From IMG/VR virus record IMGVR_UViG_2579778884_000014: 41,415 nt of DNA. The stretch is one strand, 5' to 3'. Shown piece after piece: positions 23,273 through 27,744 of the stretch. The notes under the pieces were generated by a model. It saw only the letters and a list, made by a program, of their open reading frames with translations. It did no database searches and was not told where the DNA came from. This stretch comes from a virus (lineage: Duplodnaviria; Heunggongvirae; Uroviricota; Caudoviricetes). The stretch's first letter is position 1. Every line of letters begins with the position of its first letter. The position numbers and the translations under genes were made by a program.

Positions 23273-23732
23273 TTACCACCCCACCAGCATCTTTAAACCT
23301 GGAAATCAGGTCACCGATTTTATGTTCATACTGACCGTAACCTGCACCAGGTAACGACGCCCAGATATTGCTGCAACGGTCGATTGCCTGACGAATATCG
23401 CCACGGTCAATCATCGGTAAAGCGCCACGCTCTTTAATCTGCTGCAGCGCCACAGCGTCCTGACTTTCTGGCGAAAAATCTTTCAGGCCAAGCTGCTTAC
23501 GGTAGGCATCCCACCAGCGTGAAAGAAGCTGATACCGGCCTGCGGCTGTTGATTTAAGCTTCGGGTTTAGCGTGACAAGTTTGCGAGGGTGATCGGAGTA
23601 ATCAGTGAACAACTCACCTCCGACAATAACGTCATAACCGTGATTACGTGTCGGTTGTCGCCCGTTATCCGTTCCTTCTGACCATGCCACCATATCCAGG
23701 AAAGCTTTACGTTGGGAATTTAGTGTCTGCAT
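23256..23732 (-). CDS. R: Endolysin, lambda R-type lytic transglycosylase
   Basis: 158 aa; ...NSQRKAFLDMVAWSEGTDNGRQPTRNHGYDVIVGGELFTDYSDHPRKLVTLNPKLKSTAAGRYQLLSRWWDAYRKQLGLKDF... is near-identical over long stretches to lambda R as I recall it. Confidence 0.9.
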   Translation of the reverse strand: MQTLNSQRKAFLDMVAWSEGTDNGRQPTRNHGYDVIVGGELFTDYSDHPRKLVTLNPKLKSTAAGRYQLLSRWWDAYRKQLGLKDFSPESQDAVALQQIKERGALPMIDRGDIRQAIDRCSNIWASLPGAGYGQYEHKIGDLISRFKDAGGVVNEADL

Positions 23733-23735
23733 GAA

Positions 23736-24077
23736 TTACTCCTTAGAGCCACCAAACTTGTTACCGATTACTCGCATTGCAGCCCCACGAATAGCATCGA
23801 CACCGATCAGCCCAACACCACCACCAATGGCAACAGAAAGCGATTTAGGCCATCCAACATACTCAAGAGCGGATGCAAAGGTCAGCGTCAGAGCACCACA
23901 GAGCAAAATCTCAAGCGTTTTTCGTTTCCAGCCGCCGCCACCGCCAAAATAGGCAATGCGCAAACCAGCCATAACAATTGACATAACCACTGCGCCCAAC
24001 GGCGTATCTCCACGCCACCAACTTTGTAAGAGTTCCAGTAAGTCAGGCCAGGAATGAGGAGCATTGTGCATTTTCAT
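23736..24077 (-). CDS. Holin (class I-like, dual-start MKM motif)
   Basis: Starts ATG-AAA-ATG behind a GGAGGTG Shine-Dalgarno, like lambda S107/S105; three predicted transmembrane segments and a charged C-terminus. The track ORF extends further upstream without a ribosome-binding site. Confidence 0.7.
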   Translation of the reverse strand: MKMHNAPHSWPDLLELLQSWWRGDTPLGAVVMSIVMAGLRIAYFGGGGGWKRKTLEILLCGALTLTFASALEYVGWPKSLSVAIGGGVGLIGVDAIRGAAMRVIGNKFGGSKE

Positions 24078-24380
24078 ACTTCCCACCTCCGCCATTACGG
24101 GGTGTTGTTGAAAGGCGGGCCCTGAATACAAAAAAAAGTTCGCCATAGCGAACCTTGTTAAATTTGTTAAAAAAGGAGGTTATTTAACATAATGTATGTT
24201 ATAGGAACCACACGATCCCCGCTCGCAATAGATTTGCGATGAAAGGCCTATTTAATCAACTTAAGTGGTCCAGAATGACGAAATTCGAGTGAATAAAAGG
24301 TGCATAAAAAAGGGCAAAAACTGCATAGCGTTTTTTCGCAGCGAAAGCCCTGTTTTATTAACTTTTCCCCAGAATGGGGC

Positions 24381-24407
24381 AATAAAAAAGGCCCCCTTGC
24401 GGAAGCC
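24381..24407 (-). terminator. Intrinsic terminator (tR-prime-like) between the Q-proximal ORF and the lysis genes
   Basis: Minus-strand RNA folds GGCUUCC-GCAA-GGGGGCC (two G-U wobbles, GNRA loop) followed by UUUUUUAUU. Confidence 0.5.
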
Positions 24408-24474
24408 TCTTCGTGATGAACTGTTTTCAACGGATATCAGGCTAATCGGCTTTTTGGAATTCCACAACTATTTT

Positions 24475-24816
24475 TTATCTTACCTTGATGCCTGATGCCG
24501 TCAGATGTTTACGACAGTCCTGAATACCTTCGTTATAACCCGCATCGTAGAAGCTATCCGGCTTTGCCTTCAGCGCAGGAAGCGTAACGCTGGTAGCTCT
24601 TCGTTCGGCCAGAACACCTGCCTGAAAGAGTGTCCACATCAACTGAACTGCTGAATCACAGTAAGTAACATCTTCACTGTACAATTCTCGTTCAATCCTG
24701 ATGCCAAGTTGAGCCTTCATTGATGCGCTAATATTACCTTTGACCTGCAACGACAGGTCTGGGTACCTCTGTTCCATGAAGCTTTCAAATCTGTTGCGAA
24801 CGCTGATCAGAGCCAT
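24475..24816 (-). CDS. Hypothetical protein in the Q-to-lysis slot
   Basis: 113 aa ORF 31 nt downstream of Q with an AAGGGA Shine-Dalgarno; no recognisable motif. Confidence 0.55.
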   Translation of the reverse strand: MALISVRNRFESFMEQRYPDLSLQVKGNISASMKAQLGIRIERELYSEDVTYCDSAVQLMWTLFQAGVLAERRATSVTLPALKAKPDSFYDAGYNEGIQDCRKHLTASGIKVR

Positions 24817-24847
24817 CTGGTTCCCTTACGTGATTGATTGCTGGATA

Positions 24848-25270
24848 TTATGCCGCCGAGCAGCTCCTACGCAAAGTCCTGATAGCCTGAGGCTTTGACT
24901 GAACCGACTGATCCATTTCGAGCACCACATCCAGCATGGCTAAGCAACCGTCAATAAATCCCTCTGCCGCCTGAAGCCTCTTCAGAACGTGGGTGTGAGA
25001 TACGCCGAGCTTCTCACCCATCGCCCGCACGGGCATGGCCTGGACGTAATGCCACTCAAGGAGCGTGCACAGATACGGATCTTTTTTCTTCAGGCAGCTC
25101 ATAGCGGAGTTGATGATAAGACCGTCATTGTCACTGCATTTCAGCCTTCCAGACTGCGTCGCGGGTAGCAGATTCTTAAACCCGGCTGCAACAGGAGGAA
25201 AGTAGACACTACCACCTTCACTCGCTGCCCAGCCACCCCAGCGCTCTAAAACCTGTTGAATATTACGCAT
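24848..25270 (-). CDS. Late-gene antiterminator Q (phage 82/21-type)
   Basis: 140 aa; N-terminus MRNIQQVLERWGGWAA... matches the Q-family signature (MR.IQ.VLERWG.WAA) as recalled; lies upstream of the lysis cassette. Confidence 0.8.
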   Translation of the reverse strand: MRNIQQVLERWGGWAASEGGSVYFPPVAAGFKNLLPATQSGRLKCSDNDGLIINSAMSCLKKKDPYLCTLLEWHYVQAMPVRAMGEKLGVSHTHVLKRLQAAEGFIDGCLAMLDVVLEMDQSVQSKPQAIRTLRRSCSAA

Positions 25271-25323
25271 AGCTCTGACCTCTACGTTTTGCTACGAAAA
25301 AATTTTCTGAGAACCACGTTTGT

Positions 25324-25344
25324 TTATCCGTGGGTGTGGATAAC
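25324..25344. promoter_or_regulatory. DnaA-box-like palindrome
   Basis: TGTGGATAA at 25335..25343 is a perfect DnaA box on the opposite strand; with TTATCC at 25324..25329 it forms GTTATCC-n8-GGATAAC. Confidence 0.35.
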
Positions 25345-25400
25345 GCAGTTCCGATTCGCTTATTACACGCTGTTATGTGCAAAAAATTCCTTGTTCGGCC

Positions 25401-25580
25401 TGTACCAACCTGTACCCACCTGTACCAGCTCTTTTCAAACCTTTTCCCCAAGCGACTTATATATATATATGGGGTTCTTAGTAATTAGGTTGGTACAGAT
25501 GGTACAGTTGGTACTGGCCTTTAAATTCAATTAGTTAAAATGTACCAACCTCTATTTTGAGGTTGGTACAGGTTGGGACA
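25401..25580. repeat. Iteron array with AT-rich spacer (putative replication origin)
   Basis: Three direct TGTACC(A/C)ACC-type copies (25401..25430), a (TA)n tract (25459..25470), three inverted copies (25488..25518), a perfect palindrome TGTACCAACCTC-TATTTT-GAGGTTGGTACA (25541..25570) overlapping the primase stop codon, and a degenerate GGTTGGGACA copy. Confidence 0.6.
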
Positions 25581-27744
25581 CCGCCTCAAAAATTCGAGTC
25601 ATTTTCCCCCCAATTCGCCTTTGGGCACGCTTATACCCGCAATTTTGCAAAACATTACTAATTCGCATTTCTTCGCGTTTTCCGATGCGGTCAGGATTTA
25701 GCCCAATCGCATCACGCAAAACATCACTTGCGCGTAAAAATTCGCAATTTCGCGGAAGTTCATTAGTCATCAGGTCTGGCGTGTCGAGCCATTTCTCTAC
25801 CGTTTCAAGCCAAGCATCCTTGATGGTGTACTGTTCATGGACACTCGCTGCCAGTTGTTCAGCCTCACGGAACTGGATACCCCCCAGACGCTGAAACACC
25901 TCACGAGCCTCAGCCCAAAGTAAAAGGAGATCTCTTTTTATCGCTTTCACGTCGACTTTCGACACTTCCACGGGGAGCCAGCGACGGTTACCAGTCTTGT
26001 CCGCAAGGAATTCGTCCTCATTGGTGGTACCAACGAACACCAGGCGACGAGGAAACTGGGTGGCGAACTCCCGGTATTTCGGGATCCAGTTTTCGTGAGT
26101 ACGCGTCACAAACGCTTTGATTGACTCCAGCTCTTTGGTATTAAGTCCGCGCAGTTCACCAATCTCTGCCACCAGCCGACCACGCATTTTTCGAGCGAGA
26201 TCATCGTCTTTTTCGGCAAAAGAGATTTCAGTAAAAAACGCAGGATCAGGGCTCAGTGCCTCCACTCCGGAAGACTTACCGCAGCCCTGCGGACCAACGA
26301 GGATCGGCACCATATCCGCTTTGATGCCTGGCTCCAGTACTCGCCCCGCCAACGCGGTCCACATGTACATAGACACCGCACGGGTATAAGGCGTGTCGGC
26401 GGTACCGAAGTGCGTATGGTAGAAACATTCGATGCGCGGCACGCCATCCCACTCCAGTCCGTTCAGCCAAGTGATCGCTGAATCGAATGGTTGTTCATCG
26501 GCTGCAAGTAACACCACATCGCGAATAAGTTCACGACCAACAGGTTTAAATCCCCGCTTTTCCATCGTGATGCGCAGGCGCGCATAATCCGCATCGGTGA
26601 ATGCCCGCCATTGTCCGGATCCTGCAGGGGCAAACATGATTTCGTCGCGGAACTGGTCAAAGCGAATATCGATGTCCACAAAATCAGGGCGTACTACTGC
26701 TTTGGCTGCGTTGCTGATTGTTGCCTCGATACGCCCCCATTTATCACGCTCGAAAGCAGGCAGCGGTAAAGGTTCCGCCACTTCGGTGCTGGTCAGATCT
26801 TCGAAATCGTCGTTGCGGATCCCGATGGCATTAAGGAAATCTCCGTCATCACGATGCGCACAACTGGCATGCAGGCATTTAAAATGCCCCTGCTCAAAGC
26901 CCGCGGTTCCCGCAGGAAAATAAACTGTGCTTGTTGGATCGCCCCCGCTACTGTGGCCGTCTTCAAACGGACAGCGGATATATCGTTCACCATTTGCGCC
27001 ATCCAGCAGCGTCCAGCCATTGGCATCAAGATATTCAGCTGTATCATCCGTCGCGCCGGGCGTGAATGCTGATCGGTCGCGCATCTTCGTGTTGCCCGCT
27101 TCGGTGGTTACCGACACAGGGAGTTGTTCAGCCAGGCGCTGCCACAGCGTTTCAAGCTGCTCACCAGTAATAGCCGGAGGTTCATCCGGCAAACCGCCGT
27201 CCCATTCAATACGCGCGCCGCTGCTGTGCGTACCGCAGGCAACGAACTGCTGCCCGTTCGCCAGCAACTCGATAATGCCCATATCCCCCGCCAGGCGATG
27301 GATACGCTTACGGAAATCACCATCAACGGCCAGCAGATACAGACACTTATTACTGTTTGCTCGCCAGCGTCGCGGCGGCAACTCACCCAGAAGTTGCACA
27401 AGCGTTTTGCGAATATCTGCCTGAATGTCTTCATCTTCGCTATCACAGTCCAGCGCCAGCCAGCCATGGCCTGTACGCACGCAGATGCCATAATCCGGTT
27501 CATTCGACCAGCGGGCAAAATCATGCTCAGTAACAACATGCCCGGTCCATTGAGCAATACCGGTGACCTGGCGGTCCCGGTTATAGCGACTCGGCGTCTT
27601 ACCCAACGCTTTCAGTTTACTATCAGGGGATATGGTCGCACTGGGGTTACATACAACTGGGAGAAGATGATCAGTTCTCCCCAATACCAGGTCGAAATGA
27701 AACCACTCATCAGGCGTAGCTCCCCATGGTTTGCTATCGGACAT
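25552..27744 (-). CDS. DNA primase-helicase (Prim-Pol-like N-terminus, VirE/D5-like P-loop C-terminus)
   Basis: 730 aa; Walker A ...VGPQGCGKSS..., Walker B-like ...RLVFVGTTNE..., cysteine/histidine cluster (CPFEDGH...CLHASCAH) typical of primase zinc-binding regions. Confidence 0.8.
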   Translation of the reverse strand: MSDSKPWGATPDEWFHFDLVLGRTDHLLPVVCNPSATISPDSKLKALGKTPSRYNRDRQVTGIAQWTGHVVTEHDFARWSNEPDYGICVRTGHGWLALDCDSEDEDIQADIRKTLVQLLGELPPRRWRANSNKCLYLLAVDGDFRKRIHRLAGDMGIIELLANGQQFVACGTHSSGARIEWDGGLPDEPPAITGEQLETLWQRLAEQLPVSVTTEAGNTKMRDRSAFTPGATDDTAEYLDANGWTLLDGANGERYIRCPFEDGHSSGGDPTSTVYFPAGTAGFEQGHFKCLHASCAHRDDGDFLNAIGIRNDDFEDLTSTEVAEPLPLPAFERDKWGRIEATISNAAKAVVRPDFVDIDIRFDQFRDEIMFAPAGSGQWRAFTDADYARLRITMEKRGFKPVGRELIRDVVLLAADEQPFDSAITWLNGLEWDGVPRIECFYHTHFGTADTPYTRAVSMYMWTALAGRVLEPGIKADMVPILVGPQGCGKSSGVEALSPDPAFFTEISFAEKDDDLARKMRGRLVAEIGELRGLNTKELESIKAFVTRTHENWIPKYREFATQFPRRLVFVGTTNEDEFLADKTGNRRWLPVEVSKVDVKAIKRDLLLLWAEAREVFQRLGGIQFREAEQLAASVHEQYTIKDAWLETVEKWLDTPDLMTNELPRNCEFLRASDVLRDAIGLNPDRIGKREEMRISNVLQNCGYKRAQRRIGGKMTRIFEAVSQPVPTSK

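Follow-up and report, generated by a model that had tools for sequence, protein, structure and literature searches.

A phiTE_015-family gene between antiterminator Q and the inferred late promoter of an Escherichia coli prophage

When a small reading frame and a hairpin stand between an antiterminator Q gene and the lysis genes of a prophage, are they cargo inserted beside the late operon, as toxin genes are in Stx phages, or do they belong to the arrangement by which late transcription is set up? The first-pass annotation of the DNA described here favored the former, assigning a 113-aa open reading frame (ORF) and a terminator to the Q-to-lysis cargo slot and expecting the late promoter, pR', to lie downstream of that terminator. 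Our analysis points to a different order, in which the ORF would end the Q unit, pR' would come next, and the hairpin would be the first terminator of the late leader.

The window, by which we mean the whole 41,415-nt stretch analysed, is an E. coli prophage. The region treated here is matched in 143 of 5426 complete E. coli genomes, and in 63 of the 5426 at least 80% of that region is covered (the full module). In one O121 strain, an IS1A element lies inside the Q, phiTE_015 and leader stretch (hit H15, NZ_CP119441.1 3589886-3591826). The genes relevant to this study all lie on the minus strand, in the order primase/helicase, an iteron-containing gap, Q, the 113-aa ORF, a gene-free interval of 397 nt, and the holin, after which come endolysin, Rz, and the small and large terminase subunits. 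The main features of this part of the window are as follows.

25552-27744, minus strand: gene for a VapE-type primase/helicase
24848-25270, minus strand: antiterminator Q gene (140 aa) of the Q21/Q933W family (PF06530, E=5e-42; phrog_79, E=1.5e-38)
24822-24828, minus strand: Shine-Dalgarno sequence UAAGGGA, 6 nt before the ATG of the 113-aa gene, from direct sequence reading
24475-24816, minus strand: 113-aa accessory gene of the PF26207 (Phage_phiTE_015) / phrog_343 family, from the phrog_343 match, homologs and dN/dS
23736-24077, minus strand: gene for a lambda-family holin with an MKM dual start, the first late gene (PF05106, E=1.8e-27)

The gap between the primase/helicase gene and Q contains a field of iterons (25397-25581), TGTACCAACCT and its complement AGGTTGGTACAG, present in at least eight copies and in both orientations around a (TA)6 run. 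This field is probably a replication origin recognised by the VapE-type primase.

A conserved gene behind Q

The 113-aa ORF is a genuine gene under purifying selection, as its dN/dS values, its homologs with conserved motifs and its good Shine-Dalgarno sequence indicate. The description given of it at first reading is correct: the TAA stop of Q (24850-24848) and the ATG of the ORF (24816-24814) are separated by exactly 31 nt, UAAGGGA stands 6 nt before the ATG, and the frame runs to a TAA at 24477-24475. The remark that it is not AT-rich also holds, as its G+C content is 47.1% against 50.7% for the whole window. Within the family, dN/dS (Nei-Gojobori) is 0.068 between the window and a relative, L015, and 0.052 between the Rahnella (L002) and Yersinia ruckeri (L004) loci, with synonymous sites near saturation. 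A word-indexed search with the protein returned 14 homologs (98-45% identity) from Escherichia, Rahnella and Yersinia, a profile search returned 55, and a scan of 1.84 billion cluster representatives gave 16 matches at E <= 0.001, two of which (P0023 and P0027) were dropped as low-complexity repeat proteins. The conserved blocks are an N-terminal R-x-x-F-E, a central VQLMW, a V-x-L-P, and a C-terminal P-D-x-F-Y-D-A-G-Y-N-E-G-I-x-D-x-R-K; the VQLMW and YDAGYNEGI motifs are kept down to 45% identity.

The protein had been described as having no recognisable motif, a statement that can now be replaced, since it already belongs to a named family, PF26207 / phrog_343, of unknown function. It matches phrog_343 over residues 5-112 (E=2.8e-18), and so do all 43 of the 43 family members scanned; in addition, precomputed PF26207 assignments are found on its homologs, including those 98% identical to the window protein, and RefSeq names this locus a "phiTE_015 family protein". 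In the alignment of 43 sequences, F10, E11, Y52, W61, L79 and P80 are invariant or nearly so, and all are present in the window protein. Proteins of the family are, like that of the window, about 85-115 aa long, with an N-terminal F-E, a central W, a V-x-L-P strand, and a shared C-terminal YDxGYNE(G/A)(I/L)xxC...G(I/V)K(V/T) helix. The window subfamily differs from the others in an extra low-confidence insert (residues 29-46) and in its fixed place right after Q. The local Pfam copy returned no family for it, NCBIfam and PADLOC defence-system models gave no match, and a literature search for PF26207 or phiTE_015 found no paper in the collection searched. A "head closure" label carried by phrog_15831 was set aside, as it concerns the C-terminal 53 residues only and was judged an annotation artefact of a small PHROG.

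The homology and structure search called for in the first-pass annotation thus gave a family and no significant fold match. A PDB sequence search with the 43-sequence profile returned nothing significant (best E=0.33), and fold searches of the PDB and of viral structures with models of the protein were likewise without a significant match. The two AlphaFold2 models, with mean pLDDT of 72.5 and 78.3, agree on a protein of three long helices and two short strands in which residues 29-46 form a disordered insert. With a predicted pI of 8.6, the protein has no hydrophobic or membrane segment and no signal peptide. Our best guess, offered with low confidence, is a small soluble alpha/beta protein with a protein partner at about the time of the early-to-late switch; enzymatic activity or DNA binding seems unlikely, a judgement in which our confidence is also low.

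The gene is linked to Q, and it is also absent from many relatives. Rahnella (L002), Yersinia ruckeri (L004) and an unassigned contig (L003) share the order of a PF06530 Q followed by the ORF, with gaps of 0-16 nt compared with 31 nt in the window, and their homologs are 45-49% identical to the window protein. A 281-nt deletion (24532-24812) recurs in four GenBank prophage records and in several E. coli chromosomes, and what is left is the Shine-Dalgarno sequence, the start codon and, out of frame, the final 19 codons. In many relatives that share this Q and promoter the ORF is missing entirely and Q abuts the promoter. Judged by such comparisons, the gene is probably dispensable. The GenBank records with the deletion are prophages predicted in clinical-isolate genome assemblies, and for that reason we dropped these "phages" as proof of dispensability. 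The deletion junction reads ATG^GTATTC, with 1-2 nt of microhomology (L001 4479-4483).

The predicted late promoter module and its leader

A conserved promoter-like module that accompanies this Q subfamily lies between the ORF stop and the hairpin, and in relatives it is found with or without the ORF, contrary to the expectation that pR' would follow the hairpin. In the window, this places the predicted pR' at 24467-24439, with the following elements.

24453-24468, minus strand: invariant 16-mer GTTGTGGAATTCCAAA, which includes the -35 and is a candidate Q-binding region (exact copies in about 48 Q-linked loci)
24467-24462, minus strand: -35 hexamer TTGTGG of the predicted pR', within the 16-mer
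24439-24444, minus strand: -10 hexamer TAGCCT of the predicted pR', separated from the -35 by 17 nt and aligned across 25 variants

An exact-match scan of viral contigs for the 16-mer yielded 85 DNA stretches, about 43 of which adjoin a Q homolog; the others, which lack a neighboring Q, are apparently chance or unrelated matches. With the window and the other loci analysed added, the Q-adjoining stretches make up the roughly 48 Q-linked loci, which comprise 25 sequence variants. These loci are of two classes: either the 16-mer abuts or overlaps Q, or Q is followed by an ORF homolog and then by the 16-mer. In every ORF-carrying relative (among them Rahnella, the unassigned contig and Y. ruckeri), as in the window, GTTGTGGAATTCCAAA begins 1-6 nt past the ORF stop, and in relatives without the ORF the Q reading frame (Q of 128-149 aa) ends between -17 and +27 nt relative to the start of the 16-mer. 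All 25 variants have an A-rich run, TTGTGG, a 17-nt spacer and then a -10, which reads TAGCCT, TAGTCT, TAATCT, TATTCT, TAACCT, TACTCT or, in two of them, TAATGT. Nearly all have, in addition, a strong hairpin and U tract 40-55 nt past the -10.

The window hexamers are themselves weak, with three of six consensus matches each, and were not called by the promoter scan. The predicted promoter of the window does not directly follow or overlap Q; it follows the 113-aa ORF, 379 nt past the Q stop, and its -35 begins 7 nt past the ORF stop, so that the Q-dependent cassette is present but interrupted. In Stx phages the stx genes are located downstream of pR' and tR'. The ORF of the window lies upstream of the predicted pR', which would therefore place it, as the last gene, in the Q (delayed-early) transcription unit and outside the Stx-type slot. 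The earlier idea of a Q-coupled accessory gene thus survives in that the gene is real and linked to Q by its 31-nt gap and by the same order in relatives; what is not supported is its role as occupant of a cargo slot.

The predicted transcription start, at about 24433-24431, was placed by alignment, through the -35, spacer and -10 that the window shares with its relatives. Most of these relatives have after the -10 a leader of the form G(T/C)TAAGAGTGGT(C/T)AC, which matches the sequence ...TATCATGATAAGAGTGGTTAC behind the 933W late promoter, itself mapped by dRNA-seq (PMC7547250); the window does not have it, and its own initial transcribed sequence, GATATCCGTTGAAAACAG..., differs from the 933W-like leader. 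For the Stx phages of strain Sakai, dRNA-seq and Term-seq put the pR' start 258 nt upstream of the 3' end of tR' (PMC7547250). Where its record annotates pR', 933W reads TATCAT-GATAAGAGTGGTTAC, and 258 nt back from its second annotated terminator is a point 7 nt past that -10. The start in 933W-like leaders is accordingly the A of TAAGAGTGG, 7 nt after the -10. In the window, AACAGT at about +8 to +13 is a candidate pause element, and the invariant 16-mer is the candidate Q-binding element.

Three hairpins with U runs follow the predicted start.

24384-24412, minus strand: T1, hairpin GGCUUCC-GCAA-GGGGGCC followed by U6, the first predicted terminator of the pR' leader, from fold energy and conserved pairing
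24306-24350, minus strand: T1b, GGGC...GCCC followed by U6 (fold of 24300-24385, -25.7 kcal/mol, z -2.4)
24127-24156, minus strand: T2, AAGGUUCGC-UAUG-GCGAACUUU followed by a U run, some 50 nt upstream of the holin start, from terminator scan and fold

T1 was described at first reading as a wobble-paired terminator with a GNRA loop and a U6 tract, and so it appears. Its core stem of 7 bp, with five G-C and two G-U pairs, is formed by GGCUUCC (24407-24401) and GGGGGCC (24396-24390) around the loop GCAA (24400-24397), and the U6 tract follows at 24389-24384. With the A:U-extended stem T1 spans approximately +21 to +49, and the core hairpin lies at about +26. RNAfold gives -17.1 kcal/mol for 24375-24415 (z = -2.8), and only 1 of 200 shuffles was as stable. 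The pairing is kept in relatives despite base changes (GGCUCCC/GGGGGCC in L062 and GGCUCUC/GAGGGCC in L015; the stem of L095, of 8 bp, is a different one), and nearly all relatives have a U-tract hairpin at this distance. Stem, loop, U tract and conservation together make T1 a credible predicted intrinsic terminator. It is not listed by the consensus terminator scan, likely as a result of greedy stem extension, between the A tract and the U tract, that consumed the U run. A terminator does, then, stand just after the ORF as had been proposed, but the hairpin would belong to the late cassette.

T2 has a fold energy of -10.4 kcal/mol (z -4.2, with 0 of 200 shuffles as stable) and lies about 277-305 nt from the inferred start, which resembles the 258 nt from pR' to tR' in 933W/Sp5. 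In these phages, polymerase transcribes past an initial hairpin (+27 to +49), and the accumulating RNA ends at the second terminator, at 258 nt (PMC7547250). T1 may similarly be leaky, because the RNA of 933W/Sp5 passes a comparable first hairpin, and T2 may be the main tR'. The 258-nt pR' RNA of Stx phages is processed into an Hfq-binding small RNA, StxS (PMC7547250), and by analogy the leader between T1 and the holin (24380-24127) could yield a comparable RNA. An Rfam scan of 23600-25700 returned sub-threshold hairpin look-alikes only (ctRNA_p42d at 26 bits, where the gathering score is 50) and nothing resembling StxS.

Some further features of the leader deserve mention. On the plus strand, a promoter-like site, TTGTTA-18-CATAAT (24164-24193), points antisense into the late leader, and T1b (24306-24350) is also a hairpin with a T run on that strand; an antisense RNA of about 150 nt, from this site to T1b, is conceivable. 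In relatives (L001 4881-4928; L095 3241-3288), T2 and the holin start are separated by 48 additional nt, bounded by the direct repeat CAGGGCCC; this segment is missing from the window (at about 24127-24120). The Met-Lys-Met dual start of the holin (24072-24077) resembles lambda S107/S105, and the annotated holins of relatives are 342 nt long and start MKMHNAP. The longest holin ORF, from 24146, was rejected as the real start, as it would cross T2.

We consider it probable that the ORF is a real and likely dispensable phiTE_015 gene ending the Q unit, that pR' comes next, and that T1 is the first of three leader terminators. During lytic growth, the 113-aa protein would be made together with Q, from a transcript that presumably starts at the early rightward promoter. 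Without Q, RNA from pR' would end at T1, T1b and T2, with a T1 product of about 48 nt, and unmodified polymerase that has transcribed Q and the ORF would likewise be halted at T1. When Q is present, and acts at this promoter as we expect, polymerase would read through into the lysis and structural genes.

Alternative readings of the locus

Could the protein itself be a functional partner of the late switch, acting in antitermination, on RNA polymerase or NusA, or in lysis timing? The position of its relatives is suggestive. Of the 11 contexts examined for the subfamily at least 30% identical to it, 9 have the gene no more than about 1.6 kb downstream of a Q gene, where it immediately precedes pR' or is the first gene beyond tR'. 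The Q genes concerned are of unrelated families (PF06530, PF03589, PF06323 and DUF1133-like). Indeed, distant members (30-40% identical) are also found between Q and the lysis genes, beside other Q families and across the promoter from the position seen in the window, where they fill the Stx-type slot. For example, in phage Pm34 (L096) a PF03589 Q precedes TTGTAT-17-TAGAGT, after which come a terminator and the homolog; in Xenorhabdus (L097) a DUF1133-type Q precedes TTGACT-16-TAATAT, and the homolog then stands between two terminators; in Providencia (L098) a terminator-flanked homolog lies downstream of a PF03589 Q; and another family member follows a PF06323 Q and a HicAB pair. It is tempting to speculate that the YDAGYNEGI subfamily is a hitherto unrecognised component of the lambdoid early-to-late switch, tuning antitermination or lysis timing through a shared host partner such as RNA polymerase, NusA or sigma-70, although we regard this as rather unlikely. 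The adjoining Q proteins are unrelated in fold, which makes direct binding to Q unlikely; remoter members lie in a nin-type region (with NinB, NinE and NinF) or near an integrase; and many phages that share this Q and promoter lack the gene, while others have it deleted. Moreover, accessory genes are known to cluster in the interval from Q to lysis, and the recurring Q neighborhood could equally reflect the tendency of this junction to collect them. A role for the window protein as a partner of the switch is, on balance, unlikely.

A second alternative would make the ORF a moron that has its own promoter, is active in the lysogen and confers a host trait in the manner of lysogenic conversion. 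The distant members in Providencia, Xenorhabdus and phage Pm34, being self-contained, terminator-flanked cassettes, are what one would expect of such a gene, but the window offers little that resembles them. There, no promoter-like site was found on this strand in or after Q, and a scan of the 31-nt gap, including the 3' end of Q, found no minus-strand site resembling a promoter or a terminator; the gap holds the Shine-Dalgarno sequence only. Thus no promoter was found that would serve the ORF alone, and its sole terminator is shared with the pR' leader. In addition, its G+C content is near that of the phage, and the protein has no signal peptide, membrane segment or defence-system match. This alternative appears rather improbable.

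A third alternative keeps the arrangement proposed in the first-pass annotation, with the ORF and its own terminator T1 as Q-to-lysis cargo and with the late promoter and Q site between T1 and T2. There is room for this, since 225 nt separate T1 from T2, and T2 stands just before the holin like a classical tR'; the -10-like hexamers TATAAC, CATTAT and TAAATA also occur at 24195-24170. Against it, a minus-strand promoter scan between T1 and the holin (24157-24380) found no promoter-like site, and the conserved promoter-like module, which can be linked to the pR' leader of 933W, adjoins either Q or the ORF in all relatives. The most telling comparison is with a prophage of E. coli OkiPb01683 (L095), whose Q is only 44% identical to that of the window. 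Downstream of Q, its sequence is unrelated to that of the window down to its own 8-bp hairpin at the T1 position, the hairpin included, and from the U tract to the holin the two are near-identical. The stretch between T1 and the holin is unlikely to hold a Q-specific site, because it is near-identical despite so divergent a Q; by the same comparison, the segment that changes with the Q allele ends at T1 and should hold such a site. We therefore judge a promoter downstream of T1 to be very unlikely. Finally, a chance or decaying frame in a mere untranslated leader is hardly credible. Spurious ORFs of at least 90 aa are indeed common in the window (98 are listed), and the ORF is deleted in some relatives, but dN/dS of 0.05-0.07 with near-saturated synonymous sites contradicts this reading, as do 55 homologs with conserved motifs and the good Shine-Dalgarno sequence.

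The L095 prophage has features of its own at this junction. The end of its Q gene (2908-2945) carries two copies of a 10-bp direct repeat, TGCGCTACGC, at a period of 16 nt and directly followed by TAGTAT. The TGCGCTACGC repeat and TAGTAT are candidates for the Q-binding element and the -10 of that allele, and this candidate promoter overlaps the 3' end of the Q gene, as in 933W.

Comparison with known late cassettes

The main value of these results lies in annotation: in these E. coli prophages, the late promoter is predicted to follow an extra gene, and the first hairpin to be part of the late leader. Attempts to predict late-gene or cargo expression from a Q allele should, therefore, place pR' after the ORF. 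The recurrence of phiTE_015 genes beside unrelated Q genes offers a lead, if a modest one, to what this widespread phage family does. In addition, the short RNAs expected from a constitutive late promoter resemble the origin of StxS, and perhaps the conserved leader is a reasonable place to look for another such RNA.

Among known systems, the lambda nin genes and the morons found between Q and lysis genes (stx, nmpC) are like the ORF of the window in being small, dispensable (in the window, probably dispensable) accessory genes at a mosaic lambdoid regulatory junction. The window ORF differs from them in its place, after rather than before Q and before pR' rather than after tR', and in that no promoter of its own was found.

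Q of phage 21 (Q21) belongs to the same Pfam family as the window Q, although direct similarity is marginal, with a PDB sequence search giving a weak match to solved Q21 chains (6P18, E=0.13). Q21 loads on a promoter-proximal paused polymerase at a binding element within -40 to -1 and blocks hairpin formation (bioRxiv 10.1101/651190), and a similar mechanism is expected, by analogy, for the window Q. A search of the window promoter for paired 8-bp direct repeats like those of Q21 turned up none that was convincing.

The closest comparison is with the Q-pR'-StxS-tR' cassette of 933W/Sp5, from which the window differs in several respects. Its 113-aa gene lies between Q and pR', whereas pR' of 933W overlaps the Q gene at its 3' end; the two are unlike in -35 and spacer sequence; the 933W leader TAAGAGTGGTTAC is common to most relatives of the window's module but not to the window; and past the terminators there is no toxin or tRNA cargo. 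Similarity to StxS and Rfam matches are also lacking. The overall plan is nevertheless the same. In both, a Q of the same Pfam family (PF06530) is accompanied by a constitutive late promoter (predicted, in the window) at the end of the preceding ORF, by a U-tract hairpin about 25-50 nt after the start, and by a further terminator about 260-300 nt downstream, before the late genes. On this reading, the regulatory layout of the window is a Q21/Q933W-type late cassette with one minor change, the accessory gene placed between Q and pR'.
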